In this document: one piece after another, positions 1 through 12,835 of the stretch | Numbering within the stretch: the stretch's first letter is position 1 | Layout: each line of letters begins with the position of its first letter | IMG/VR virus record: IMGVR_UViG_2737471853_000001 | Location: 1-12,835 of that record | Strand: one strand, 5' to 3' | Source: a virus | Taxonomy: Duplodnaviria > Heunggongvirae > Uroviricota > Caudoviricetes | Length of the DNA: 12,835 bases | Notes under the pieces: generated by a model | Database searches by the model: none | Seen by the model: only the letters and a program-made list of their open reading frames with translations | What the model was told of the DNA's origin: nothing | Made by a program: the position numbers and the translations under genes

Positions 1-290
1 ATATATGCGGTTAACGTGAAGCTCTGGTTATAGGGATTAACCCCCGCGACATATACATTTCCTCCGTTCCGGTAAGATATTACTGGCGTGGGCTGGGCGG
101 TATTTGTGGTCCTGATAAATACCATCACAGGGTAGTCAGCATTTAATGCAATATTCTGAGCAACCTGCTGCGAACTGCCATTAGCAGAGGAGTTGAAAGT
201 GTACTTGCCGTAAAGACAAAAAGGCGTTGACTGGGGCGTTACAAATGGGTTCCCGTTGTCCATTAATATCATCGCGCCAAATTCGGCCAT
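1..290 (-). CDS. Hypothetical protein, 5' part only (N-terminal 96 aa; runs off the window start). Second small ORF downstream of J.
   Basis: ATG at 288-290 overlaps the TAA stop of the preceding ORF (TAATG on minus strand). My hand translation of the minus strand gives MAEFGAMILMDNGNPFVTPQSTPFCLYGKYTF... with no in-frame stop down to position 1. Not in the ORF track because it is truncated. No family recognised. Confidence 0.45.
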   Translation of the reverse strand, partial: MAEFGAMILMDNGNPFVTPQSTPFCLYGKYTFNSSANGSSQQVAQNIALNADYPVMVFIRTTNTAQPTPVISYRNGGNVYVAGVNPYNQSFTLTAY

Positions 291-592
291 TATGCTTTCT
301 CCATGAAAACGACCACTTCACACTTTGAGGCCGGATAATTACCCAGACCTACAGAAGATGCAGCGCTTACGGTTATTGTGCTCCCTGACGCGACAATGCG
401 CCGCCCTACGCTGTTACCTCCTTCATCAAGTGAAAGAACAAAACCAACTTTCATTCCTGAGGGCACCGTAAAAGACCAGCTGCCGGAGGTTTGCCCGGCA
501 GCCAGCTGTATTCGCCCAACGACGGAAACGGGTTTGATGCCATAGTTGTTGGGTTTTCCTGAAGCATCCCAGGTCTGTATTCCATAAGCCAT
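290..592 (-). CDS. Hypothetical 100-aa protein immediately downstream of J (possible tail-tip accessory protein)
   Basis: ORF track 290..592. Its ATG lies 1 nt after the J stop (TGA-A-ATG). No signal peptide or transmembrane segment evident; G/S/V-rich, looks beta-rich. Function unknown. Confidence 0.55.
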   Translation of the reverse strand: MAYGIQTWDASGKPNNYGIKPVSVVGRIQLAAGQTSGSWSFTVPSGMKVGFVLSLDEGGNSVGRRIVASGSTITVSAASSVGLGNYPASKCEVVVFMEKA

Positions 593-593
593 T

Positions 594-3500
594 TCAGAAT
601 ACTCCCGTTAATCGGCCAACCTGCACCCTAAGAACATTACTGCCATCTTTGACGCTGATCGTCTGATTTGTCAGTTTCATGGCTCCCTCACCAGCAGTCG
701 AACCGTAGTTCTCAAACGTCCCCCCTTTATCAAGCTTCCAGCCAGCAGAACCAGCAACATAATTGTTCGACTGGATAAAATTACCAATCTTTGCGTTGCT
801 GATAGTGCCGTCCTGAATGAGGGTGTCACGGATGAACACCTGCCCGTTCTGGATAACAAACGGCAGAGTCACGGTCCCTCCAGCCTGGGTCATAACCGCG
901 AAGCGGTCTGCCAGGAAGAGCACCTGCGACTGCATTCCCGCTGGCGTATTCTGAACACCAATCCCCATTCCTGCCGCGTACTGGTTGCCATTGGAATCAA
1001 CAGCTACCTTGATGCTGTACATCGCATTCAGGTTATTATTGATGTCGGCTGATACCTGGCTGTTCTGGATAATAGCCGCAGACTGACCATTTACTGTGAC
1101 CTTGAGCGAGTTAATTTGCGTAGCTGATACTTGAGTGAAATCAGCAAGCGTCTTAGACAGATCGGTAACATTCGCCGTGTTTCCACCGGCGCTGGAATCC
1201 AGGGTGCGCAGAGACTCAGCGACAGCTTTACTGGCGTCGGCCATCACATTGTCTACTCGATCGATACTGGCTTTGTTATCTCCATACTGGACGCTCAGGA
1301 GGTTGCGCTGGTTAACCTGCGCGAGCGTACTGGTGATCAGCGCGATAGCATTGTTCTGAATACCGCCGCTGGCCTTATCAGTTTGTGCACCCAGCTCTTC
1401 CAGGCGTGATGCCATTGAGGAATCGAGGTCCGTGACAACCTGGCTAAGGTCAGTGATTGATGCTGTATTCTGAGCACCTACAGCAGCTGCTGAATCAGCT
1501 TTGTCAGATGCGGCCTGAGTGGCAGCCGTCAACTGGCTTACAGCAGAAGCGCGCGCTTCAGTTTCCGTTGCTAAAGCCTGGCGAACATCAGTAATTCCGG
1601 CTTCATTCTGCGCAGTTTTTGCCTCAAGGCGAGTAACATCCGTGACGCGCGCTTCCGTCTCAGTGGCGATCACCTCCCGGAGCTGTTCGAATGTCGCAGA
1701 GTTAGCGCCCTGTTGGGCTGTCTGGCGCACGATAACATCGGCAATAGCCAGGGCGTTCCCAATGATTGCTTCTGCTGTCTGCTTATTCGAACCTACTGCT
1801 GCAGCCAGACCATCGGCGTTCTCCTTAATCGCATCAGAAAGTTCGGCCAGTTTCTCGCTACTTTCTACGGCACTCTCAATCAGATCCTTGAATACCTCAG
1901 AATCTTTAATCTCCTCCAGGATCACACTGGAGACATCAGAAACATCTATACTTGCCTGCCCACGAACCCAGCCGGTATAACCTGATTCGTTGCCGCTGCG
2001 GTCCACCAGCTGCGCGCGGTACCAGAAAATCTGCCCAGCCTTAAGGCCCATCTGCTGATATTTGCGCTGCGGGTAAGGCACATCGGCCAGCAGCATCGCA
2101 TCGTCTTCGGTACCGGTCAGACTGTACTGAATTTCCGTCTTCAGCGTGTCGTCGGTATTCGCCGGGAATCCCCAATTCAGCTCGATACCGAATACCACGT
2201 TTTCAGAAGCGATAAAGCCAACCGGCTTCGGTGGATTGCCCACTTTACCCGTCAGCGTTTTCTCTTCTGAGTAGCCCCATCCAGATGAAATTTCTGCGGC
2301 ATTGATTGCGCGCACGCGCACCAGGTAGCGCCCGGCATAAATCCCCGGGACATCGAATGACGTGGTGGAGCTGCGCGGCACGTTAACCCAGTTCCCGTCG
2401 TTGCGGCGCCATTGTGCTTCATAGGCGATAGCGTTCTGCGCCTGGTCCCAGCTCACGCGCATTGTTTCGACGCTGATATTTTGCTGAACCACGGAAAACG
2501 AGCTGATCACGATATTCGCAGGCGGCGACTGGTTACCAGGCGGGATCACGCTCACCGGCCGTTGGTCAATGATGGCTCCGGTATCGATACGGGCATATTT
2601 ATCCGGGTCGTGCCATGCGCCGGTGATTGAGAAAGTGCCATCCCCGTTATCGGAAACGCTGACAACTCGATACTGCTGCGCGTAGAGCTCGTCAGATTCA
2701 ACCACCCAAACAGCTTCGGCCTGTGGCGTCTCACTGTATGCCGTGGTGACTGTGACTGATTCCCCGTTCACGGCATGAATGGTCCTGCTCTGCGACGCTC
2801 CGGAGGGAAGGTTGAGAATAAGGCGATCACCTGGTGCTGCATCAGCTACGCGGTCAAGTTTGATAACGCGACCGTTAACGGCGCTGATGCGGCCGCCCAT
2901 AACCTTTCCGGAAAGCAGCTCGTCTGCCACGGCGATGATGTAGCCAGGCTGCGGAATGTTTCCGTCCAGCCCGACATCAAACGAAACAACGCGATCCTTG
3001 TTATTAGTGAGAATACCCCAGCGCCCCTTTCGGTTCGCCTCTGACTGCCTGGTGCAGCCGATGGCTGTCATTTCCAGCTGATTGAAGCCGTATCGCGCCA
3101 CCAGCGCCTGCTCAAATACCGGTTCCATCGCGTCGGCATAAGCGTTACCCGGGTCTGACCATGAAACCAGCGCTGTGGTGTAGCGGCTTTTCGTGGTGCT
3201 GCTCGAATAGGTGAAGCGACCGCCAACAACGTTAGCGCGCGTATAGCTGTAATCAACATCGCGCGGCATGTCAGCCAGGGCCACAATCTGATCCCCGCCC
3301 CAGTAGGTCATGCCACGGAAGATAGCGGCAAAATCACGCAGGACTGTGTAGGCGTCGTTCCGGTCCTGAATGTACACGTTGCAGGTATAACGTGGTTCTG
3401 TACCGTTGCCCCCTTTGCCGTCTGGTACCATCTGATCACAATACTGAGCAACCTGATAAAGCGTCCATTTATCAATATTCTCAGCGGTCAAACGGTGCCC

Positions 3501-4391
3501 AAGGCCGAACCGGTCAGAAACAACCAGGTCGTAAAAAATCCACGCAGGGTTATCCGTCCATGCCCACTTAAACGCACCGGTCCATGTACCGCTATAAGTG
3601 CGGGTTTCAGGGTCGTAGGTATCTGGAACGCGGATAACGCGGCCGCGCGGTTCGCATGAAATTTGAGGAATAGAGCCGTTGAACTGGCTTGAGTCGAATT
3701 CGACGTAGAGCAGCGCGGTGTTCGGGTAGCGCAGTTTGGCGTCAATCACCTCGGTGAAGCTCTGCAGCATCATCGTGTCGCCGATCTTCGCGCTGTTGGC
3801 GTCAGAGGTAATCTTACGCAGACGTATTGTCCAGGTGCTGCCAGCCTGCGGTAAATCGATACGGTGGCTGCGCTCATAACCTGAGGTCGTTTTACCGGTC
3901 ACGCTGGTATTGAGTACCGTCTGCCATGTGCCGCCGTCCGTCTGTAGGTCAATCGCATAATTGACCGAGTAACCCACCAGATCGCCGTCGTCTTCCTGTT
4001 TGAAAAGCGAGGGCCATTTAAGACGCAGGCGAACTGCTGAAAGCTGCGTATTGGTAAACGTGCGCGTCCAGGCTGTGGCACTTGATACCTCAGTTCCTAC
4101 GCTGATCTCGTTTTCGGTACCGGGAATACCCTGAATATATTTTTGCGCCTGAGTTCCCGCGCGAAACTCCCACGTTACCCCGCTGAAGTTTTGGGAGCCG
4201 TCAGCATTCTCCAGCGCTGTTCCGTCCAGGTAGATATCTTTGCCGGTGAGCTGCCCTGCAAACTCACCTTCCCCAAGCGCAACGAGGATTTTTGCCTTCG
4301 CTACAGATTGCAGATCATCAGGCTGTTCGGTAGGAGTTCGGGAACTTGAGCTGCCGCCCTTGCGGCCTTTTAACACTTTATCTGTAGCCAT
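594..4391 (-). CDS. J: Host specificity protein J (tail tip / central tail fibre), 1265 aa
   Basis: Sits after I as in lambda. N-terminal two-thirds resembles lambda gpJ as I recall it (e.g. the ...ISGVT..FRAG... and ...RITCN.Y... stretches, plus fibronectin-III-like region). The C-terminal ~400 aa is a coiled-coil with TETEAR repeats followed by a distal domain, and differs from lambda J. Confidence 0.93.
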   Translation of the reverse strand: MATDKVLKGRKGGSSSSRTPTEQPDDLQSVAKAKILVALGEGEFAGQLTGKDIYLDGTALENADGSQNFSGVTWEFRAGTQAQKYIQGIPGTENEISVGTEVSSATAWTRTFTNTQLSAVRLRLKWPSLFKQEDDGDLVGYSVNYAIDLQTDGGTWQTVLNTSVTGKTTSGYERSHRIDLPQAGSTWTIRLRKITSDANSAKIGDTMMLQSFTEVIDAKLRYPNTALLYVEFDSSQFNGSIPQISCEPRGRVIRVPDTYDPETRTYSGTWTGAFKWAWTDNPAWIFYDLVVSDRFGLGHRLTAENIDKWTLYQVAQYCDQMVPDGKGGNGTEPRYTCNVYIQDRNDAYTVLRDFAAIFRGMTYWGGDQIVALADMPRDVDYSYTRANVVGGRFTYSSSTTKSRYTTALVSWSDPGNAYADAMEPVFEQALVARYGFNQLEMTAIGCTRQSEANRKGRWGILTNNKDRVVSFDVGLDGNIPQPGYIIAVADELLSGKVMGGRISAVNGRVIKLDRVADAAPGDRLILNLPSGASQSRTIHAVNGESVTVTTAYSETPQAEAVWVVESDELYAQQYRVVSVSDNGDGTFSITGAWHDPDKYARIDTGAIIDQRPVSVIPPGNQSPPANIVISSFSVVQQNISVETMRVSWDQAQNAIAYEAQWRRNDGNWVNVPRSSTTSFDVPGIYAGRYLVRVRAINAAEISSGWGYSEEKTLTGKVGNPPKPVGFIASENVVFGIELNWGFPANTDDTLKTEIQYSLTGTEDDAMLLADVPYPQRKYQQMGLKAGQIFWYRAQLVDRSGNESGYTGWVRGQASIDVSDVSSVILEEIKDSEVFKDLIESAVESSEKLAELSDAIKENADGLAAAVGSNKQTAEAIIGNALAIADVIVRQTAQQGANSATFEQLREVIATETEARVTDVTRLEAKTAQNEAGITDVRQALATETEARASAVSQLTAATQAASDKADSAAAVGAQNTASITDLSQVVTDLDSSMASRLEELGAQTDKASGGIQNNAIALITSTLAQVNQRNLLSVQYGDNKASIDRVDNVMADASKAVAESLRTLDSSAGGNTANVTDLSKTLADFTQVSATQINSLKVTVNGQSAAIIQNSQVSADINNNLNAMYSIKVAVDSNGNQYAAGMGIGVQNTPAGMQSQVLFLADRFAVMTQAGGTVTLPFVIQNGQVFIRDTLIQDGTISNAKIGNFIQSNNYVAGSAGWKLDKGGTFENYGSTAGEGAMKLTNQTISVKDGSNVLRVQVGRLTGVF

Positions 4392-4402
4392 ATTGCGCCC
4401 AT

Positions 4403-4433
4403 AAAAAAGCCACCCGAAGGTGGCCAGAAAAAA
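4403..4433 (-). terminator. Intergenic GC stem-loop with flanking U-tracts between I and J (terminator-like or mRNA-stabilising hairpin)
   Basis: Minus strand reads TTTTTT-ctg-GCCACC-ttcg-GGTGGC-TTTTTT-atgggcgcaat-ATG(J). Stem 4409-4414 / 4419-4424 with UUCG-type loop; U-run follows at 4402-4408. Confidence 0.4.
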
Positions 4434-4443
4434 GGTTAGTTAT

Positions 4444-5049
4444 CTACTGCTGATCTTCGACATAAATTCCGGCAGAAATAATCGCTCCGCCGATTCGACG
4501 CTTACCATAAAGCAGAGGCACTGGGTAGCCTTGCGCTGCAGTGTTGGTTACCCCGCCAAACGCATACGATGCACGGTTATCTGCGCTTTGTTTACTGGCT
4601 ATGCCTGATGGCTGCGGTGAAAGCAGCTGAATAACCCCACCGAGGACCAACGAGGCACCAGTGGCAGCAGCAAACCACGTCAATCCACCAGCAGCGAAAG
4701 CAGCGCCAATACCGCCAGAAACAAAGACTGCAGCAGTTATCAAAACTGCTCCTAATATCGTCTGAAAAAGACCAGCGCGTTTACTACCGATAATTACAGG
4801 CATAATCCTTACTACATCGCCTTCAGAGGGAAAACCCATCTCATCTGCGGCAATATTTCTTTTCCCTTTGAACACCGCGAAAGTTAATCCGCGACGTTTA
4901 CTGCTGATCATGAAACTTTCGAAACCGGGCAATGTTTTACTTAAAGCAATAGCAGCTTCACCAGTTCGCGCTATCAGTCGTTGATGGGTTCTACCGAATG
5001 TCTTTCCTAACACTCCGCCGAGCTGAATTGTTGTCATTACTTCTTTCAT
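4444..5049 (-). CDS. I: Tail assembly protein I
   Basis: 201 aa, located between K and J as in lambda; hydrophobic Gly/Ala-rich C-terminal half typical of gpI. The true start could be the internal Met (MTTIQ...) 12 nt downstream. Confidence 0.85.
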   Translation of the reverse strand: MKEVMTTIQLGGVLGKTFGRTHQRLIARTGEAAIALSKTLPGFESFMISSKRRGLTFAVFKGKRNIAADEMGFPSEGDVVRIMPVIIGSKRAGLFQTILGAVLITAAVFVSGGIGAAFAAGGLTWFAAATGASLVLGGVIQLLSPQPSGIASKQSADNRASYAFGGVTNTAAQGYPVPLLYGKRRIGGAIISAGIYVEDQQ

Positions 5050-5060
5050 ATTCTCACCAT

Positions 5061-5080
5061 AAAAAACCCGCCGAAGCGGG
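5061..5080 (-). terminator. Rho-independent terminator candidate downstream of the lipoprotein gene
   Basis: Minus strand reads CCCGC-ttcg-GCGGG followed by TTTTTT (stem 5067-5071 / 5076-5080, U-run 5061-5066), 12 nt after the lipoprotein stop and 11 nt before the I start codon. Confidence 0.55.
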
Positions 5081-5091
5081 TTAAGTCTTGG

Positions 5092-5433
5092 TTAGATACA
5101 GCGTTCTATTACTTTAATCCGGCTGTTTATTCGATAAGCAAATAGCCCACCTTGATGACGGAATTCAATCTTGGTAATTCCGCCGTCCGATATTAAATCA
5201 ACCATCTCAAGTTGAGATTGTGTAAATACAGTTTTACCACCGTCATAAGGCTGAATAAAAACGCTTCCATATTTTTGGCTTTCTTCTTGCCAGCCAGAGA
5301 GTATGCATTCAGCTACTGCGTCAATTTGTTTCTTCGATTGAAAAGTATTTGACGCTGGTTCCTTCCGGAGATCCTGCATACTCGAACAACCAGCCATGAT
5401 TATCAAAGAAAGTGTCAATAATGTTTTTTTCAT
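5092..5433 (-). CDS. Predicted outer-membrane lipoprotein (113 aa precursor) inserted between K and I; candidate moron
   Basis: The ORF track entry 5092..5601 overlaps the 3' end of K; the plausible start is the internal ATG at 5431-5433 (MKKTLLTLSLIIMAGC-SS...). This gives a signal peptide with lipobox IMAG-C and Ser at +2. AAAGGGG lies 9 nt upstream as a ribosome-binding site. Region is AT-rich relative to neighbours. Followed by a terminator. Confidence 0.7.
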   Translation of the reverse strand: MKKTLLTLSLIIMAGCSSMQDLRKEPASNTFQSKKQIDAVAECILSGWQEESQKYGSVFIQPYDGGKTVFTQSQLEMVDLISDGGITKIEFRHQGGLFAYRINSRIKVIERCI

Positions 5434-5462
5434 ATCCCTATCCCCTTTGGTTTTGCAAAAGG

Positions 5463-6173
5463 TTAGCACAGAGATTTGTAACGTAGAATCTTCATCGTCC
5501 TTTCCTGCCAGTAGCCACCATACGGCACGCGCTGGCTCAGATGTCCGTACAGGTGGTGCAGCAGCATATTTCCCTCCAGCAGAATTCCCGCGTGATTCCA
5601 CTTATCGGCCTGGACCTGCATGATCACCATATCACCGGGTTTCGGTGGTCCGTCGAATTCACGGAATCCGCATTCATACCAGCAATCCTGATAAAAATTG
5701 TCCGGATAGGCGTTTTCCCACCAGGGATAATCCACCCGGTAATCGTGGAGCTCGATACCATGCGTTTGCCGGAAATAGCTCATTACCAGCCCCCAGCAGT
5801 CGAAGTGTCCAAGCACAAACGGACGCTCCAGCAGTGGCAGTTCTCCGCGCGGCTGGATGGTGCGTAAATCCCCCTCCGGCCAGCTCACAATATGCCAGGG
5901 TAAAAGCGTTGCGTCGCATTGCGCTTTATCCAGTTCGCTCGGCTGCGTAGTGGCGTCAGGGTGACTGTGAACGATGGCGATCACCGTACCCCAGTCCTCA
6001 GCAGCTGCATAGTCTTCTGGCGACAGGTGAAAATGTTCTGTCGGCTCGGTAGCGAGGTTACTACATGGAAAATATTTCTCTACCCGGCTCTTTTGCGCCA
6101 CCACGCCGCAACACTCACTAGGATATTCAGCTGCAGCATGCGCCATAATCGCATCGATGGTTTTCTGACGCAT
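5463..6173 (-). CDS. K: Tail assembly protein K (JAMM/MPN metalloprotease-like domain plus NlpC/P60 domain)
   Basis: 236 aa. JAMM motif H-S-H-x7-S-x2-D visible in ...AIVHSHPDATTQPSELD...; NlpC/P60-like Cys/His in ...FDCWGLV... and ...HAGILL.... Position between L and I matches lambda. Confidence 0.9.
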   Translation of the reverse strand: MRQKTIDAIMAHAAAEYPSECCGVVAQKSRVEKYFPCSNLATEPTEHFHLSPEDYAAAEDWGTVIAIVHSHPDATTQPSELDKAQCDATLLPWHIVSWPEGDLRTIQPRGELPLLERPFVLGHFDCWGLVMSYFRQTHGIELHDYRVDYPWWENAYPDNFYQDCWYECGFREFDGPPKPGDMVIMQVQADKWNHAGILLEGNMLLHHLYGHLSQRVPYGGYWQERTMKILRYKSLC

Positions 6174-6174
6174 A

Positions 6175-6930
6175 TCAACTCCTGATCAGCGACGTACCAG
6201 GGAAGCCACCAAACGAGAGTTCGTTATTTTCGCCGAATCGGAGTTTGCAGGCCGTCAGCGTGCCATTGCATTCATCCAGCGACGGATCGCTTACCGGGTT
6301 GTTGTTTTTATCGAAATAGCGGGTGCCGGCATAGTCGCAGCCGTCGCCGGTACGATATTTATTCCGGATGCACCATGTGCACAGAGAATGAAGCTGGCGG
6401 GTAGGTATCATCAGCCCCTGCAGATCCATAGGGCTGGATAGTGTGAACTCAACAACTTCATTGGTTTCACTGCTCTTTGCATCGATGTAGAAAACCTTCA
6501 GCTTCTCCTGGGTCGGATCGGCTGTCGGATTGCCTCCGGTGAAGTTTCTCGCATCGAGATACTTACCAAGGGTGTCATGTATCGTCACCTTCGCCTGCAG
6601 CATATCGTCGTAAGCCAGGCAAAGCGCGGTGATCGAACTGTCGAGGTTAGCAACCGAAAGTTTTGGCTGGGCACTACTTCCCGAGGTTGAAGCTTCGATC
6701 CCCTCAATCTGGCATGGCCACGCTTTATACTCCTCACCCTGCCACCAGATAGATTTTGCTGGCAGTTTATTTTCATCACCGCCAGCAGCGATAATTTCGG
6801 CTTCAGAGTGCGCAAGACTGTAGCTGTGAAATCGCAGCACATCACCTGTACCAAATGCCGTGCCATCCACTTCGAAAAGCCTGACCACATCGCCAGGTTC
6901 GAGCTTCTGAAAATCTGCGTTAAGACTCAT
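6175..6930 (-). CDS. L: Minor tail protein L
   Basis: 251 aa, between M and K. C-terminal Cys cluster (C-x2-C ... C ... C ... C) as in the iron-sulfur-binding region of lambda gpL. Start overlaps the M stop (ATGA). Confidence 0.88.
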   Translation of the reverse strand: MSLNADFQKLEPGDVVRLFEVDGTAFGTGDVLRFHSYSLAHSEAEIIAAGGDENKLPAKSIWWQGEEYKAWPCQIEGIEASTSGSSAQPKLSVANLDSSITALCLAYDDMLQAKVTIHDTLGKYLDARNFTGGNPTADPTQEKLKVFYIDAKSSETNEVVEFTLSSPMDLQGLMIPTRQLHSLCTWCIRNKYRTGDGCDYAGTRYFDKNNNPVSDPSLDECNGTLTACKLRFGENNELSFGGFPGTSLIRS

Positions 6931-7268
6931 GGTTTGTAGGCCTGTTCAAAAGTTGCAGAAAGATTAAATAACCCGGCACCAAGTGGCGTTGGTGTGTAGG
7001 TGTCGCAGCGGTAAAGCCCGAGAGGCTCAAGCGGCGGGCGCCACTGAAACGCCGTCACGCCCGCATGGCGATCGAGAAAGTCTTTAATCGCCCCGATATA
7101 CGTTTCGGTACCGGTAAACTGGAGAGTCCATTTCTGCGAGCGGGGATTAATCCCGTCGCAGGAAACCTGCTGATATCCGTCACCGAACTGCGCGGTGCGC
7201 CGTCGGAATGTCACTTCCTGCTCCGCGTTCGGGCGCGGACACCAGCTGAATGTTTCTATAGCCATCAC
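6927..7268 (-). CDS. M: Minor tail protein M
   Basis: 113 aa directly after the tape measure gene; contains the FGDGY.Q motif shared with lambda gpM. Start overlaps the H stop (ATGA). Confidence 0.88.
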   Translation of the reverse strand: MMAIETFSWCPRPNAEQEVTFRRRTAQFGDGYQQVSCDGINPRSQKWTLQFTGTETYIGAIKDFLDRHAGVTAFQWRPPLEPLGLYRCDTYTPTPLGAGLFNLSATFEQAYKP

Positions 7269-9685
7269 CGCCCTCCTTTTGCCAGATTCCAGACCGCGCC
7301 ACCGGGTGAAAGGTCACGGCCTATCAACTCTCGGTATCGCCGATCAACAAAACTACCTACCTCCCGCCCGAATTGCTCATATCCACCGCTAGCCTGAGTC
7401 TGGGTATTCCCATTGCCATCAATCTGAATACTGACCTGAGGAGCACTACTACCACCCGGTGTTAAGCCTGAGATTCCCATAGCACGCACGCCCAGCGATC
7501 CGTCAGCGGCGCGGGTCAGTGGCATAATAGCCTCCGGCCCAGCCTCCCCCATCAATCCGGCCCCTTTGGCAAAGGCAAACAGTGTTGGAGAGCTGACGAC
7601 AGAGTTACTGTACTGACTGAGATCGGCAGAAGAGTAAACGCCGCCTTTGGCGTTGAATTGCAGGCTCGCCCCGTAGGACTGAATCGCAGTACCGCTGCTG
7701 GCGGAAGACGATGCGGCACCACCGAACAATGAGCCTATCGAGCTGGCTGCATTGGCGATCATCATGTTAACCATCACCTGTTCGATGATTTTCAGAACAC
7801 TGACACCCCAGTCTTTCCAGCTCGCTTTATTGCCGTTGAGCATGTCGACGATATTGCTGCTGATACCGGAAAGCGCGCTTTTCATAGCGTCCGCCGCCAG
7901 CGTCGCATAGTTAGTTGAATCATCTACCCAGTCAGCGAGACCGTCTCTGGCGCCAGTCACCCAGTCAGACTGCAGCGCATCAATTTGACTGTAATAATCC
8001 TCCTGGATGCCCAGCCTCTCAGCTTGCGCATCCTTTAATGCCTGGGTTTCGCGGTCATAAACTGTCTGGCTGATATCTCCTGACTGATACTGCTTTTGCA
8101 GATCGCGCAGCTGATCGAGATAACTGCGCTCTATACTCAGCCTTTCCCTCAGCCTTTCACGCTGCTTGTCACCGAGTCCGGCCCCCTGAATATCCACGCC
8201 CAAATCTGCACGTGCATTCTCGTTCTGCTCCTGCAGATTTGCCACGAACGCCGCTACCTTCGCGTTTTCTTCATTAGCTTTTTTGACGGCATTAAGGCGA
8301 TCAACTTCCTGAGCCAGAGACGCAAGTCGTTTCTTCTGGGTTTCGTTAAGCCCCTGCAACTTGCCGTCAGCTATATCGAACTGCAGTTTTTGCTGCTCGG
8401 TCACCACAGCAGTTTTTTTGCCGGTGGTATCGATCAGCTCAATCTGACGCATGTAACTGCGCTCAGCGCTTTTAAACGCTGAATCCAGTTTCTGACCAGA
8501 GGTATTTTTTTGCGGCTTACCGTTTGTTTCCCCGGCGCCAAGGGTATAGTTTGTTTTGACTGGCTCGGGCAGTTTTATTTCCGGTAGAGTAGATTGGGAG
8601 TTTCTCAAAAAGGCCAGTCGCCTCTGGAGCTCAGCCCTTTCGGCCTCCTTACTGGATACGTCCATACCTATTCTGTTGAAACTCGCCAGTATGCCTTTAT
8701 CATCGAGATCTGCATTCAGGTTCTTGATGCGCCGTTCAATTTCTGGAATGGAGGCATTCAGGCCGACCGAACTCCCACCTTTGTACTGGTCTATCAGCTT
8801 TCCGGCCTCGGCTCCTACCCTTACCAGCCAGGTGGCAAGGTCCACTACCCCACCAACCAGATCAGTCAGACCCTGAATAACAGCCGGGTCTTTAAATACA
8901 TCCCCCATATCTCCAATAGACTTCTGGAGCCCACTCAAATCTACGCTGGCGAGCCCTGCAGCAAGTTCAATTTTGACGCCGTTGACCTGCGTCTCCATAT
9001 CCTCAAACAGGGCGTTGACTCTGACCAGCTTTTCAATATCTGCGTCATCGGGCGCCACACCAAACTTCTTCGCGGCATCCATATACTGACGCAGCTTTTC
9101 ACTGCCATTGTCCAGGAGCGGCAGCATCTTTGACAGGTCATTACCCAGACTCTCCAGGATGGTAGTCTTCTCGGCGTTGGACTTAACTTTCTCCAGTGCG
9201 TCGCTGATAGCCAGGAGTTGCTTGTCGGGAGATTCTCCGGCCAGTTTCTTAGCCGACAAACCCAGAGCGTCCAGCGCACCGACCGCCTCACCAGATTTAT
9301 TAAGAACGGCATCACCGATTTTGTCTCCGACATCTTTAAAGATATCGGCCATCTGATCGCCGGAAACACCTGCTTTTTCTGCAGCATATTGCCAGGCTAA
9401 CAGGGACTGCGTGGACATGTTAAGTGACTTTGCCCAGCGGTCTGATTCGGTAATCTGACGTGAAGTGGTTTTGAGCAGGTTATACCCCGCCACTCCGGCT
9501 CCGATGGCTGCAGCCCCGACTGCTGTTGCGAATCCGGTCATGGCAGCTGCAGCGGCAGCGGCATCCTCCTTTACCTGCTTACGCCATTTTTGTGAAGCTC
9601 GCTCAGCCTGCGAGAGGCCTGAGACAAAACCGCCCACTTTGGCAATCAGGTCGATCGTCAGCGTGCCCAGTGATTTGGAAGCCAT
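7265..9685 (-). CDS. H: Tail tape measure protein (lambda gpH-like), 806 aa
   Basis: Large alpha-helical protein with Ala/Gly-rich hydrophobic segments, immediately downstream of the G/G-T chaperone genes. GGAGAG ribosome-binding site 7 nt upstream of the ATG. Confidence 0.9.
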   Translation of the reverse strand: MASKSLGTLTIDLIAKVGGFVSGLSQAERASQKWRKQVKEDAAAAAAAMTGFATAVGAAAIGAGVAGYNLLKTTSRQITESDRWAKSLNMSTQSLLAWQYAAEKAGVSGDQMADIFKDVGDKIGDAVLNKSGEAVGALDALGLSAKKLAGESPDKQLLAISDALEKVKSNAEKTTILESLGNDLSKMLPLLDNGSEKLRQYMDAAKKFGVAPDDADIEKLVRVNALFEDMETQVNGVKIELAAGLASVDLSGLQKSIGDMGDVFKDPAVIQGLTDLVGGVVDLATWLVRVGAEAGKLIDQYKGGSSVGLNASIPEIERRIKNLNADLDDKGILASFNRIGMDVSSKEAERAELQRRLAFLRNSQSTLPEIKLPEPVKTNYTLGAGETNGKPQKNTSGQKLDSAFKSAERSYMRQIELIDTTGKKTAVVTEQQKLQFDIADGKLQGLNETQKKRLASLAQEVDRLNAVKKANEENAKVAAFVANLQEQNENARADLGVDIQGAGLGDKQRERLRERLSIERSYLDQLRDLQKQYQSGDISQTVYDRETQALKDAQAERLGIQEDYYSQIDALQSDWVTGARDGLADWVDDSTNYATLAADAMKSALSGISSNIVDMLNGNKASWKDWGVSVLKIIEQVMVNMMIANAASSIGSLFGGAASSSASSGTAIQSYGASLQFNAKGGVYSSADLSQYSNSVVSSPTLFAFAKGAGLMGEAGPEAIMPLTRAADGSLGVRAMGISGLTPGGSSAPQVSIQIDGNGNTQTQASGGYEQFGREVGSFVDRRYRELIGRDLSPGGAVWNLAKGGR

Positions 9686-9704
9686 AAACTCTCCGTTGGC
9701 GGCA

Positions 9705-10366
9705 TTATGTCCAGCTGGCTCTGGCTTCCTCTAACGAGATTGGTCCATCAGCAGCTTTGACTTTGGTAAAGTGAAGTGTGAAATCGGTCGGGTTGAATGG
9801 TGGGCGCTTGGGGTCTCTGTTAACGTTGGCTATCATGCTGCTCACCAGCCCGGCACCCCACTCAACCCGCAACATAGGGTTCAGACTCCCGTATCGTTCC
9901 CGGTACTTTGCCCAGAGTTGGGACTCTTTGAATGAGAGGACTTCCCGCGCTTCGGCGATTGTTCTGCCTCCGATTCCGTTGAGGACGAGCTCGCACCAGA
10001 ATTCGTCTTCGGCGCTGAGCTCGAAGTCTTTCCCAGATCGTTAACTTCCTGAATGGCCAGAAGCAGTGCTACCGTCAGGCCGCCATCCAGTGCACCACGT
10101 TCAGGATCTGCCTCACCAGTAATGTCAGCCGGGGTGAAGATGGGTTTACCATGTTCATCGCAGATGGATGCGGCGATACGCCCTGCCACACCATCGACCT
10201 TACCACCAAAAGCCAGCACATCGGACGTTGCTGTGTGATAACCCATCGGGCGAACATACACGGTCGCGGTGATTTTTTTATCGCCTTGCGTCCAGGTGAT
10301 TTCTTTCTCAACCGGGCGACCGGTAAACGCGCCGGACTCCTTGAGTGCATCAAGTGTTAATTTCAT
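9705..10366 (-). CDS. G-T: Tail assembly chaperone G-T fusion produced by programmed -1 ribosomal frameshift (about 220 aa)
   Basis: After a -1 slip on G-GGA-AAG (10028-10034) the new frame is open for 107 codons (GKDFELSAEDEFWCELVLNGIGGRTIAEAREV...EEARASWT) and stops at TAA 9705-9707, 19 nt before the H start. Hand translation from the sequence. Confidence 0.72.
9881..10366 (-). CDS. G: Tail assembly chaperone G (zero-frame product, 161 aa)
   Basis: Sits between major tail protein and tape measure. AGGA ribosome-binding site 8 nt upstream. Contains the slippery heptamer at codons 112-113. The zero frame continues 48 codons past the slip site as a Ser/Thr-rich low-complexity tail. Confidence 0.8.
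   Translation of the reverse strand: MKLTLDALKESGAFTGRPVEKEITWTQGDKKITATVYVRPMGYHTATSDVLAFGGKVDGVAGRIAASICDEHGKPIFTPADITGEADPERGALDGGLTVALLLAIQEVNDLGKTSSSAPKTNSGASSSSTESEAEQSPKRGKSSHSKSPNSGQSTGNDTGV
10028..10034 (-). other. Programmed -1 frameshift slippery heptamer GGGAAAG
   Basis: Plus strand CTTTCCC at 10028-10034 is GGGAAAG on the minus strand, in register xxG-GGA-AAG with G codons 112-113. This is the same heptamer used for the lambda G/G-T shift. Confidence 0.7.
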
Positions 10367-10384
10367 TATTAATCCTGATTAATA

Positions 10385-10400
10385 AGGGCGTTGCCGCCCT
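10385..10400 (-). promoter_or_regulatory. Perfect 6-bp GC stem-loop in the major-tail / G intergenic region
   Basis: Minus strand reads AGGGCG-gcaa-CGCCCT, 4 nt after the major tail stop codon. The following U-tract is weak (TATTAAT), so this is more likely a 3' stabilising hairpin or attenuator than a strong terminator. Confidence 0.35.
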
Positions 10401-10404
10401 GATT

Positions 10405-10905
10405 TTATGGGGTCACGACTTTTGGCACCCATACAGCAGAGCCGGAGCGCTGGATAGATGCAGAAGTAGAAACAACCGTGTTTGCTGCAAAATCAAACGG
10501 GAAGTCGGACACATAGCCTTTGAATACGAACCATGTGCGGCTATCAGGTAGCACCAGGCCATCGACTGCACCGGATGCACCATTTTCAGCCGCAGTTGGC
10601 GATGCGGTTCCGTCTGACCATCCAATCGCGAAGGTCAGGTCCTGATCCTCTTCGTCGTCCGAAATGGACAGGTTGTAGAGCATGATGTGGCTGGTATTTT
10701 TAGGATCAGCGTTAAGCGTCAGTGATGCTGTGCCAGGCGTTCGAAGACCACGCTTATAGCTGCGATCAAAGCGTTCAGAAAGACAGGTGTCTTCAATCTG
10801 GTCAGCCGGATTGCTGCCGGGTGAAAATGCAGTGATACATTCAACTTCGCTCACCTCGCCTTTTACGAGCACAAAGAGCTGCGTACCTTGCGTCAATACA
10901 GACAT
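10405..10905 (-). CDS. Major tail (tube) protein, 166 aa
   Basis: Called by position: directly upstream of the G/G-T chaperone pair and downstream of the DUF3168-like gene. GGAGA ribosome-binding site 6 nt upstream; hairpins flank it on both sides. Family not recognised with certainty from sequence. Confidence 0.7.
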
Positions 10906-10931
10906 TGTTATCTCCGGTCATAAAAAAACCG

Positions 10932-10953
10932 GCTCAAGGCCGGTTGTTGAATA
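10932..10953 (-). terminator. Terminator-like hairpin plus U7 upstream of the major tail gene
   Basis: Minus strand reads CCGGC-cttga-GCCGG-TTTTTTT (stem 10939-10943 / 10949-10953, U-run 10932-10938), lying between the DUF3168 gene stop and the major tail start. Confidence 0.45.
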
Positions 10954-10959
10954 ATACGT

Positions 10960-11325
10960 TTATCGAGTGACTATCCAGTCAACATCGAATGAGTAGCGAT
11001 AGCGCTTTGTTTCGGGGTCTCTTTCCTGTCCGCCCCAGCGCGTGATATGCGCGTGCGGCTCAATGGCATCCCGCAGCGCAGTAGCCACGGCAATCACTTC
11101 ATCCACGGTGTCGGCATATGCATCCACCTGCAGCGTGAAAAAGTCTGCGTCAGGGCGCTGGGCAATGTAGTTCTCTGGAGAACCGGTGATGTTCTGCCAG
11201 ACCACATAGGGATAGACCACGTTGTCGTCCTGAATTCCGAAAGGATAAATTCTTACCGGATTGCTTCCGAGTAAGTCAGTGACTTCAGGACTCGACGCGC
11301 AAACAGAAAAAATAGGGGCAATCAT
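10960..11325 (-). CDS. DUF3168-like tail completion / tail terminator-type protein, 121 aa
   Basis: Matches the DUF3168 pattern as I recall it: ...RIYPFG..., ...PYVVWQNITG..., ...LQVDAYADT..., ...ATALRDA.... Start overlaps the preceding gene's stop (ATGA). Confidence 0.78.
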   Translation of the reverse strand: MIAPIFSVCASSPEVTDLLGSNPVRIYPFGIQDDNVVYPYVVWQNITGSPENYIAQRPDADFFTLQVDAYADTVDEVIAVATALRDAIEPHAHITRWGGQERDPETKRYRYSFDVDWIVTR

Positions 11326-11870
11326 GCAGTGGTTCCTTTCTTCGTGGCCAGCCTGATAGCGCGATCAATAGCCTTTCCCATTTCCGTAGAAAAAACATTA
11401 ATCACGTCATTATCTACGCCGTTCATTGCAGGTCGGAGGATAGGCCGCGCTGATGTGTGCTCAGTACCAAACTCAAGAAAACGCCAGTACCAGGTATCTC
11501 CTCCTGGATTGCCTTTATCTCCTGAGGTTTTGTATGTTTTACCCGCTCTGCCTTTTCTGACGTTTGCCTTTGTATTTGCATACTGCCTAGCACCGCCCAT
11601 TACCCCGACACGGAATGCCAGATCACCTGTCCTGCGGAATTGCTTGCTGCTGAAGCTGGCGACGATATTTTTGTGGATTGCTTCTTTAGTCAGAGGATCA
11701 TCAACTCGTGACGCGTTGCTTCTGGCCCGATCCCTTATAATGTTTGCCGCCTTACGCAATGCAAACCGACCGGCTTTATTACGGGTGACTTCTGATACGG
11801 CCTCCATTTTCCCAAGAAGTGATTCAAGCCCGGTAAGACTTACCTCAACACTATCAGCCATCATTAACAC
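11322..11870 (-). CDS. HK97 gp10-family head-tail joining / tail component protein
   Basis: Motifs LTGLESLLGKMEA, ALRKAANIIRDRAR and WRFLEFGTEHTSARPILRPAM fit the HK97 gp10 family. The track start (MLMMADS...) overlaps the head closure gene by 17 nt; the true start may be the Met at 11859-11861 (MADSVEV...). Confidence 0.75.
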   Translation of the reverse strand: MLMMADSVEVSLTGLESLLGKMEAVSEVTRNKAGRFALRKAANIIRDRARSNASRVDDPLTKEAIHKNIVASFSSKQFRRTGDLAFRVGVMGGARQYANTKANVRKGRAGKTYKTSGDKGNPGGDTWYWRFLEFGTEHTSARPILRPAMNGVDNDVINVFSTEMGKAIDRAIRLATKKGTTA

Positions 11871-12186
11871 CCTCAGAACAGGGAAGCGTCAGGTATTCAC
11901 GTCCGCTTTTTGGATCGGGCAGAACACCATGGATGTTATACACCGCACCACGAAACAAGATGCGATGTTTTCTGGTAACTCCGGCACGGTAGCGAATAAC
12001 AATACGGGTGGTTATTTCACCCTGAGAAGCCTGCGCAGCAATAAATTCACGCGCTGACAATGGTGAAACTTCGGCCCGGACAGTCGCAACATCTCGCCAG
12101 GTATTAATTACGGCTCCCGTTGTCGGGTTCTGCACTTTTACTGGCTCCTGCAGAGTAATCCTGTGGCGCAATTTCCCGGCCTGCAT
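11854..12186 (-). CDS. Head closure protein (head-tail adaptor, Phage_H_T_join / gpFII-like family)
   Basis: 110 aa, MQAGKLRHRITLQ...WRDVATVRAEV.PLSAREF..AQ......RIVIRYR.....HRILF.G.VYNI.GV.PDP... matches the family pattern. Start is 1 nt after the preceding ORF's stop. Confidence 0.88.
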   Translation of the reverse strand: MQAGKLRHRITLQEPVKVQNPTTGAVINTWRDVATVRAEVSPLSAREFIAAQASQGEITTRIVIRYRAGVTRKHRILFRGAVYNIHGVLPDPKSGREYLTLPCSEGVNDG

Positions 12187-12187
12187 G

Positions 12188-12385
12188 TTACCCCCTGGGT
12201 TTACCGCTCAGATAGGTTTGTTGCTCTGCAGTTTCATCTAGTTCACCAGCCAGCGACTGGATAATGACATCGCAAAGCGCCATATTTGATTCAGCCAGAC
12301 GGCTTATCGCTTCCGTCTGCTCCCTCTGCGCTGTGATTTGTTCCCGTATCACTGCTATCAGTTCGTTTACCAGTTGCTCGTTCAT
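12188..12385 (-). CDS. Small hypothetical protein (65 aa, predicted helical) between connector and head closure genes
   Basis: ORF track; its stop is 1 nt before the head closure ATG (TAA-C-ATG) and it fills an otherwise empty gap in a tightly packed operon. No clear Shine-Dalgarno sequence and no recognised family. Confidence 0.4.
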   Translation of the reverse strand: MNEQLVNELIAVIREQITAQREQTEAISRLAESNMALCDVIIQSLAGELDETAEQQTYLSGKPRG

Positions 12386-12448
12386 AAGCTATTTTTGCCC
12401 ACTTTTTTATCCACTCGCTCCGTTGCGCGCATCCTGAACAGGCCATAT

Positions 12449-12775
12449 TTACACCCCGTAAATTCGGTATGGCTGAAGCAGGGCTTCAACTGCAAACGGG
12501 ACCTCTGCAACGGTCTGACCGACGGCCACTGATTCTCTGTTGGCATACCAGTGACCTATCAGCAATAACATGGCCGCTTTAACATCATCATTCAGTAGAA
12601 TCGGGTCCGGGTCGTCTGCGTAGCCAGGGGAGCTTTGGTTTTCATAGAGCGTTCGCCTTGTCCATGTCTGGACGTAACGCGCCGCCGCACCGGTGTATAA
12701 CGTCAGCAGGGCATCGTCTCCGGAAAAATCGGTATCAATGCGGCAGTGCTGTTTCACCACATCAAGGTCGACCAT
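12449..12775 (-). CDS. gp6-like head-tail connector protein
   Basis: 108 aa; ...VKQHCRID.DFSGDDALLTLYTGAAARYV...AMLLLIGHWYANRE...LLQPYR... fits the Phage_connect_1 pattern. Its ATG overlaps the stop of the upstream gene (TAATG). Confidence 0.85.
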   Translation of the reverse strand: MVDLDVVKQHCRIDTDFSGDDALLTLYTGAAARYVQTWTRRTLYENQSSPGYADDPDPILLNDDVKAAMLLLIGHWYANRESVAVGQTVAEVPFAVEALLQPYRIYGV

Positions 12776-12835
12776 TATTTTTTCGCCTTCTTGTCAGCTT
12801 TTACTTCCGGCTGTACCTGCTGCTGTTCCTGCTGC
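12775..12835 (-). CDS. 3' end of an upstream head-region gene (C-terminus ...QQEQQQVQPEVKADKKAKK*)
   Basis: Hand translation of the minus strand gives an open frame entering from beyond the window end and stopping at TAA 12775-12777, overlapping the connector ATG. Identity (capsid, decoration or other) cannot be determined from 19 residues. Confidence 0.35.
   Translation of the reverse strand, partial: QQEQQQVQPEVKADKKAKK

Follow-up and report, generated by a model that had tools for sequence, protein, structure and literature searches.

Two genes coupled to J

The DNA analysed here is a stretch of 12,835 nucleotides (nt) from a virus of the Caudoviricetes (IMG/VR record IMGVR_UViG_2737471853_000001, positions 1 to 12,835), hereafter the window, and our subject is the pair of small open reading frames (ORFs), ORF1 and ORF2, that directly follow the gene for the tail tip protein J at its left end. 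All genes of the window lie on the minus strand and the order of the tail module is read from right to left. Small and lambda-like siphoviruses carry a receptor-specificity locus directly downstream of gpJ, and we estimate at about two in three the probability that ORF1 and ORF2 are the FhuA-type allele of this locus, with the ORF2 product as the FhuA binder on the J tip and the ORF1 product as its adaptor or assembly partner. One intervening base (593) separates the J stop codon from the ATG of ORF1, and the ATG of ORF2 shares the A at 290 with the TAA of ORF1 (TAATG). An earlier note on this DNA, made from the sequence alone, had described an ORF of 100 amino acids (aa) starting 1 nt past the J stop, followed by a TAATG-overlapping ORF that leaves the window; the coordinates (Table 1) confirm every detail, and the N-terminal sequences it quoted match the translations exactly. 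It had also seen no signal peptide in either ORF. Hydropathy agrees and reveals no transmembrane segment in ORF1 or ORF2 either (highest Kyte-Doolittle means over 19 residues 1.27 and 0.96, respectively), while the N-termini, MAYGIQTWDASGK in ORF1 and MAEFGAMILMDNGNPF in ORF2, contain neither a hydrophobic h-region nor a lipobox.

We regard ORF1 and ORF2 as real genes and not chance ORFs, because both match PHROG families and because ORF1 is identical at the nucleotide level to genes of known phages and prophages. PHROG 557 covers residues 1-99 of the 100 in ORF1 (E 2.4e-36), in effect its full length, while ORF2, of which the N-terminal 96 aa lie within the window, matches PHROG 425 (E 4.1e-30) at profile positions 1-93 of 224. 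Between ORF1 and gene 22 of phi80 there are no differences in 303 nt and 100 aa, and the count is likewise 0/303 nt against HK544 and two E. coli prophages. The visible part of ORF2 is identical at 95 of 96 positions to HK544 gp22 (212 aa) and to the protein of the phi80 prophage of XL10-Gold (224 aa), and at 93 of 96 to phi80 gene 23 in record FN582354. At the DNA level, window positions 1-1166 are 91-95% identical to phi80, HK544, HK542, ECP1, HK446 and mEp phages, and the figure rises to 98.6% for the phi80 prophage in E. coli XL10-Gold. The description of the ORFs as unknown thus fails for the sequences, which we identify with the already catalogued genes 22 and 23 of phi80 (22/23 in N15, p24/p25 in HK022, gp21/gp22 in HK544), genes of putative function. 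The pair agrees with the phi80 genes and their counterparts, T1 and Dhillonvirus homologues included, in its place behind J, in the single-base gap and in the overlap of stop and start codon. The window itself holds an unremarkable and well-conserved example of a known module. It differs from phi80 and HK544 in its mosaic J, which carries an insertion of about 150 aa, and in that ORF2 is seen only to residue 96 (212 or 224 aa in relatives). Hereafter, gp22 and gp23 refer to the two families in phi80 numbering.

Searches of Pfam and NCBIfam returned a family for neither ORF, only sub-threshold matches (Tailspike_C, E 0.015; DUF6201, E 0.042), and searches of PDB sequences with single sequences and profiles gave nothing significant, the C-terminal domain of the Sf6 tailspike (E 0.14) being taken as noise. 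As the 96-aa fragment of ORF2 retrieved just 8 fragments, the homologue search was rerun with the full-length HK544 protein. At 50% identity the gp22 family falls into 73 clusters, throughout which the length stays at 100-105 aa, and nearly all matches of its profile among 1.84 billion representatives are stand-alone proteins of this size. Five giant bacterial adhesins (1380-4677 aa) were the long matches; they are built of MBG_2 (YGX-type) repeats, score against the profile through 11-24 weak stretches each and were set aside as uninformative, their resemblance to gp22 probably reflecting a generic likeness of beta-sandwich repeats rather than homology. In a metagenomic predicted protein of 139 aa, a J C-terminus (Phage_Tail_Tip positions 70-136) runs on into residues 1-45 of a gp22 homologue; this may be either a natural fusion or read-through, or an artefact of gene calling on a short contig.

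Linkage to J and exchange of the J tip

According to tblastn, gp22 and gp23 occur in about 350 phage records each, which form essentially the same set. The carriers include the temperate phages phi80, N15 and HK022-like phages, the Dhillonvirus members Teewinot, bob, PaulFeyerabend and GeorgBuechner, Drexlerviridae including T1, and Klebsiella Webervirus. The pair is always located downstream of J, and phi80, HK544, N15, T1, Sushi, Roth93 and E. coli prophages all encode J, 22 and 23 in this order on a single strand, with junctions that are short or overlap. N15 has overlapping junctions, T1 has the pair on the strand of J, and in Sushi and Roth93 the pair starts 45 nt past J. Against the Dhillonvirus homologues, gp22 is more conserved (70-77%) than gp23 (46-56%). 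The gp23 homologues of Webervirus (Sushi, Roth93) share only their first ~163 residues with the E. coli proteins and differ in the C-terminal part, as would be expected if that part reads a Klebsiella FhuA variant. In Sfin-1 one 957-bp gene follows J in place of the small and large pair, so that the virion proteomics of this phage has no bearing on the pair.

In phi80, HK544 and the closest E. coli prophages the gene order is J, 22 (100 aa), 23 (212-224 aa), cor and a side tail fibre gene, and cor is also adjacent to the pair in N15. The cor gene encodes a lipoprotein that blocks FhuA. It has its own promoter in phi80, and because T1 carries it on the opposite strand and Sushi and Roth93, both Klebsiella phages, lack it, the pair is tied to J and not to cor. 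This independence of cor, together with the coupling of the pair to J in the late tail operon, argues against the view that gp22 and gp23 are the membrane or outer-membrane part of a cor superinfection-exclusion cassette and assist Cor in blocking FhuA within infected cells or lysogens. The PHROG names do say membrane protein, the pair does co-occur with cor in FhuA phages, and the authors of the KanT1 paper, who noted both proteins in 10 BASEL phages, all of them FhuA users, and obtained no fold match, guessed at superinfection exclusion from the adjacency to cor (PMC13164509). Yet signal peptide, lipobox and transmembrane segment are missing from both proteins, the fold of gp23 is that of a virion receptor-binding protein (RBP), and a remote homologue pair, gp84/gp85 of vB_EcoS-95, is present in virions (both points are detailed below). 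We thus consider an exclusion role very improbable and the PHROG labels unsupported, since sequence and fold speak against them. Membership in the Cor/Llp lipoproteins or the Lom-like outer-membrane proteins is ruled out by the lack of signal peptide and lipobox and by models that are soluble beta-sandwiches. In lambda, the lom and stf-tfa region takes the same place downstream of J, but Lom is an outer-membrane beta-barrel bearing a signal peptide and Stf/Tfa are side fibres, neither of which resembles gp22 or gp23; the lambda receptor LamB is bound by J itself (PMC8594841).

The J protein itself is a mosaic. Its residues 1-800 are ~100% identical to J of HK544 and CUPF12 and ~55% identical to J of phi80, and the recombination junction falls inside the Phage_Tail_Tip domain. 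Phages whose first 800 aa of J are only ~55% identical have near-identical J tips (last ~65 aa), gp22 and gp23. Because the J tip is 100% identical despite the mosaic J, and ORF1 is nucleotide-identical, J tip, gp22 and gp23 evidently move as one recombination module. Joint transfer of this kind is what one would predict for proteins with a need to fit together, and the C-terminal tip of J would be the docking site of the downstream proteins. Separately, alignment of J with its counterparts in phi80, HK544, Oekolampad and prophage CUPF12 leaves all four with a gap opposite residues ~850-1000, a segment of ~150 aa. Ala, Thr, Glu and Gln abound in this segment and an ATETEAR motif recurs, which gives it the look of an additional coiled coil that would make the central fibre longer.

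The remaining tail module of the window follows the lambda-like order Z-U-V-G-H-M-L-K-I-J, with J as the final gene (Table 1). J is recognised by the Pfam families FNIII-A_GpJ (E 1.8e-50) and Phage_Tail_Tip (E 8e-49) and by PHROG 31, 'central tail fiber J'. Between K and I an ORF was called that shares bases with the 3' end of K; as only its residues 57-169 match PHROG 914 (E 2.4e-36), a family without assigned function, the real gene inserted between K and I is probably ~113 aa long. The ORF of the tail assembly chaperone is followed by a short ORF in a different frame, a junction that is the usual site of the programmed -1 frameshift yielding the G-T fusion.

Table 1. Features of the minus-strand tail module in the window (positions of the window; module rows in right-to-left order)
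Feature	Position	Strand	Description
Tail module up to tape measure		minus	tail completion, tail terminator, major tail protein, tail assembly chaperone, tape measure (806 aa)
Tail module after tape measure		minus	M-, L- and K-like, small PHROG-914 ORF, I-like, J last
Tail assembly chaperone ORF	9881-10366	minus
Short ORF after chaperone	9705-9875		different frame
ORF between K and I	5092-5601	minus	PHROG 914 match
J, tail tip / central fibre protein	4391-594	minus	1265 aa; TGA at 596-594
J insertion	1394-1844	minus	~150 aa
J C-terminal tip	791-597	minus	last ~65 aa; no differences from J of phi80, HK544 and prophage CUPF12
Shine-Dalgarno of ORF1	606-602	minus	GGGAG; 9 nt upstream of ATG at 592
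ORF1 (phi80 gp22 family)	592-290	minus	100 aa; ATG 592-590, TAA 292-290
Shine-Dalgarno of ORF2	302-299	minus	GGAG; within the end of ORF1, 8 nt upstream of ATG at 290
ORF2 (phi80 gp23 family, N-terminal part)	290-1	minus	ATG 290-288; 96 codons open to window edge

Predicted folds, remote homologues and the peptide motif

Structures were predicted with AlphaFold2, for gp23 on an alignment of 53 family members whose first sequence is a homologue with 99% identity to the HK544 protein. The gp23 model (mean predicted local distance difference test score, pLDDT, 88; predicted template modelling score, pTM, 0.83) consists of two all-beta halves (~25-99 and 111-207) behind a low-confidence N-terminus (1-20), and that of gp22 (pLDDT 84) of a beta-sandwich at residues 23-99, again with a low-confidence but conserved N-terminus (1-20). 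In both proteins the N-terminal ~20 residues are among the best conserved despite the low model confidence, and such conserved but low-confidence termini are typical of peptides that fold on a partner. In gp23 the interdomain region is conserved as well, while the domain bodies (31-90 and 161-200) are variable. A Foldseek search of BFVD with the gp22 model returned no match at E <= 1e-3 and no gp23-like target.

The gp23 model resembles the LptD-binding RBP of Oekolampad (Bas18 gp25, PDB 9rpt chain C) over 143 residues at 13% identity, and the latter structure was solved in direct complex with its outer-membrane receptor. Both proteins occupy the post-J locus and, as far as the model goes, have a fold in common. 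The Oekolampad RBP nevertheless differs in being a single chain of 321 aa without a gp22-like partner, encoded on the strand opposite to J and directed to LptDE. Because the gp23 profile aligns to the Oekolampad sequence with a hhalign probability of only 0.09% and the PDB profile search with gp23 does not retrieve 9rpt, gp23 is not a member of the LptD-type family (Oekolampad RBP / Rtp44) but at most a fold-level relative. The FhuA, BtuB, LptD and YncD binders have been termed 'unrelated families' (bioRxiv 10.64898/2026.04.02.716166); contrary to this, the model suggests that the FhuA-type and LptD-type families are related by fold, and that differently named receptor-binding families at the post-J locus share an origin. 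We consider the fold-level link between the FhuA-type protein and the solved LptD binder the most useful new point of the analysis.

A more distant version of the locus is found in vB_EcoS-95 (Warwickvirus), whose record holds at 45180-46343 an inverted post-J locus opposite J, encoding the lipoprotein gp86, the 92-aa gp85 and the 204-aa gp84. Here gp84 is a remote homologue of gp23, collinear over 198 columns (hhalign 95%, E 3e-8), while gp85 and gp22 match weakly (hhalign 9%, E 0.003) and agree in size, position and N-terminal motif. Both gp84 and gp85 were detected in virions by mass spectrometry, in a study where all 16 identified proteins came from the structural module (PMC6340994). This detection favours components of the virion over proteins that act solely inside the cell or in its membranes.

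The earlier note had also found the N-termini of the two ORFs loosely alike and had suggested, without confidence, that they may be paralogues. Of this, a short recurring motif is upheld, while the bodies are not significantly similar, and the significant likeness of the gp22 N-terminus is to the middle of gp23 instead of its N-terminus. Residues 1-14 of gp22 (MAYGIQTWDASGKP) align with residues 106-119 of gp23 (PKWGMAIWDSSGKL) in BLASTP and in hhalign (E 8e-5, 14 columns), and in a motif matrix built from these two segments the next best site of gp23 is at residue 4, FGAMILMDNGNP (P 0.056). The same matrix picks out the N-terminus of vB_EcoS-95 gp85 (P 0.004) and the middle of gp84 (P 0.005), with the gp84 N-terminus at P 0.06. 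Homology of whole domains was not accepted as proven: hhalign gave 3.5% for gp22 against the N-terminal half of gp23 and 0.4% for the two halves of gp23 against each other, and the 69% for gp22 against the C-terminal half was discounted as the N-terminal motif drives the score. The sandwich bodies thus show no significant sequence similarity by hhalign; the small protein looks like one 'peptide plus sandwich' unit and the large one like two, of which the peptide motif is the statistically supported part. The N-terminus of the Oekolampad protein also resembles the motif (GAGILIDYNDGRP), with a score that is not significant. Reading that protein as a fusion of three modules was abandoned, the matrix ranking only its N-terminus first (P 0.18) and giving the predicted internal sites no score.

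A speculative extension, which we hold to be rather unlikely, is that gp22 (one unit) and gp23 (two units) form a three-module, pseudo-threefold cap that converts the threefold symmetry of the J tip to one asymmetric FhuA-binding face. Each unit could consist of a docking peptide (aromatic-G-x-x-I-x-x-D/N-x-x-G) and a beta-sandwich, with the three peptides filling three equivalent sites of the trimeric J tip. If so, the FhuA-, vB_EcoS-95- and LptD-type binders would be one ancient superfamily of J-tip adhesins.

The probable link to FhuA

A number of studies concern the receptor-specificity locus. It has been proposed that J-like proteins bear dedicated RBPs in non-covalent attachment and that the genes of these RBPs and of their exclusion proteins lie directly past gpJ, and the alleles have been matched to receptors (Maffei et al., 2021, PMC8594841). 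The correlation between RBP locus and receptor was confirmed over 101 siphoviruses in a preprint that also describes an FhuA-specific RBP family with accessory proteins (bioRxiv 10.64898/2026.04.02.716166). In the KlebPhaCol collection, the weberviruses sensitive to FhuA mutations carry gp53/gp54 of Roth93, while the FhuA-insensitive Roth44 lacks both; AlphaFold gave an interface predicted template modelling score (ipTM) of 0.75 for FhuA-gp54 and of 0.45 for FhuA-gp53, only the former being a confident prediction (PMC12629751). By gene count in the Roth93 record, gp53 and gp54 are the homologues of gp22 and gp23. Our comparison placed homologues of the pair in phi80, N15, T1, Teewinot, bob and the BASEL Dhillonvirus, while Oekolampad (LptD) has a different gene at the locus, and the pair thus tracks FhuA use in relatives with a determined receptor. 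The FhuA loci published for BASEL, in the preprint and in KlebPhaCol hold the same two protein families at the same locus as the window, but they sit in virulent Drexlerviridae, Dhillonvirus and Webervirus, whereas the tail module here is temperate and lambda-like (Hendrixvirinae-like). T5 follows the same logic, in that FhuA is bound by pb5, a protein separate from the central fibre whose end it occupies, and is then blocked by the small lipoprotein Llp; no similarity of gp23 to pb5 was found in sequence or fold.

The conserved J-22-23 order, this literature, the fold of gp23 and the virion detection of the remote homologues support the earlier proposal that the two ORFs are made and act with the tail tip and govern host range. 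In the mechanism that we favour, ORF1 and ORF2 would be translated with J from the late tail mRNA, given the 1-nt gap, the TAATG overlap and the ribosome-binding sites of their own. The gp23 protein would be a soluble two-domain all-beta protein, seated non-covalently on the conserved C-terminal tip of J, that contacts FhuA for irreversible adsorption. Behind its conserved flexible N-terminal peptide, gp22 would be a single beta-sandwich of 80 residues with an accessory part, either bridging J tip and gp23 in the virion or helping to mount gp23, which is the least certain step. Probable docking strands are the N-terminal peptide of either protein and a related one that opens the second domain of gp23. 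In close relatives the product of the downstream cor gene would block FhuA afterwards; the position of cor lies beyond the window.

Several points weigh against gp23 as the FhuA binder. The virion mass spectrometry concerns a remote homologue and amounts to 2 and 3 peptides, and the relation to the Oekolampad RBP is at the level of fold only. The FhuA link itself consists of correlation and of AlphaFold models by others (the ipTM of 0.75 and an AF3 model), and we found in the literature no experiment in which a gp23-family protein binds FhuA or its deletion alters adsorption. As ORF2 is incomplete in the window, its receptor-proximal half is taken from relatives, and the role of gp22 is a guess from its size, conservation and position. 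The cryo-electron microscopy (cryo-EM) of T1 left the distal 350 residues of J unresolved and reported no density for the gp22 and gp23 proteins (PMC11945409). Moreover, some authors still hold that J itself is the FhuA binder (PMC10373560, PMC11447400).

The T1 structure is also consistent with the view that the C-terminal domain of J binds FhuA and that gp22 and gp23 are chaperones of J-tip assembly or fibre-maturation factors, required for folding but outside the receptor contact and possibly not retained in the virion. The C-terminus of J co-varies perfectly with the module, and the preprint finds FhuA-predictive features in the C-terminal tip of GpJ (bioRxiv 10.64898/2026.04.02.716166). 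Such a role sits less well with a gp23 fold that matches a protein solved in complex with an outer-membrane receptor, with the presence of the remote homologue pair in virions and with the confident FhuA-gp54 interface predicted by others, while the variable surfaces of gp23 would suit a receptor binder better than a chaperone. On balance, we consider J as the binder unlikely, although it deserves more weight than an exchange of roles within the pair, in which the conserved 100-aa gp22 would be the FhuA adhesin and gp23 its adaptor to J. The high conservation of gp22 could reflect a conserved receptor, and gp22 has a weak, sub-threshold similarity to tailspike C-terminal domains. However, the published ipTM values rank gp54 above gp53, it is gp23 and not gp22 that resembles the solved LptD binder, and the LptD locus has no equivalent of gp22, so that we give the exchange very little credence.

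Among the classic FhuA phages are phi80, T1 and N15, and the locus of J tip, gp22 and gp23 is the leading candidate for encoding the protein with which they touch FhuA. If gp23 as the binder and gp22 as the adaptor were confirmed, J tip, gp22 and gp23 would form a portable cassette for predicting and re-engineering the receptor specificity of lambda-like and T1-like phages.
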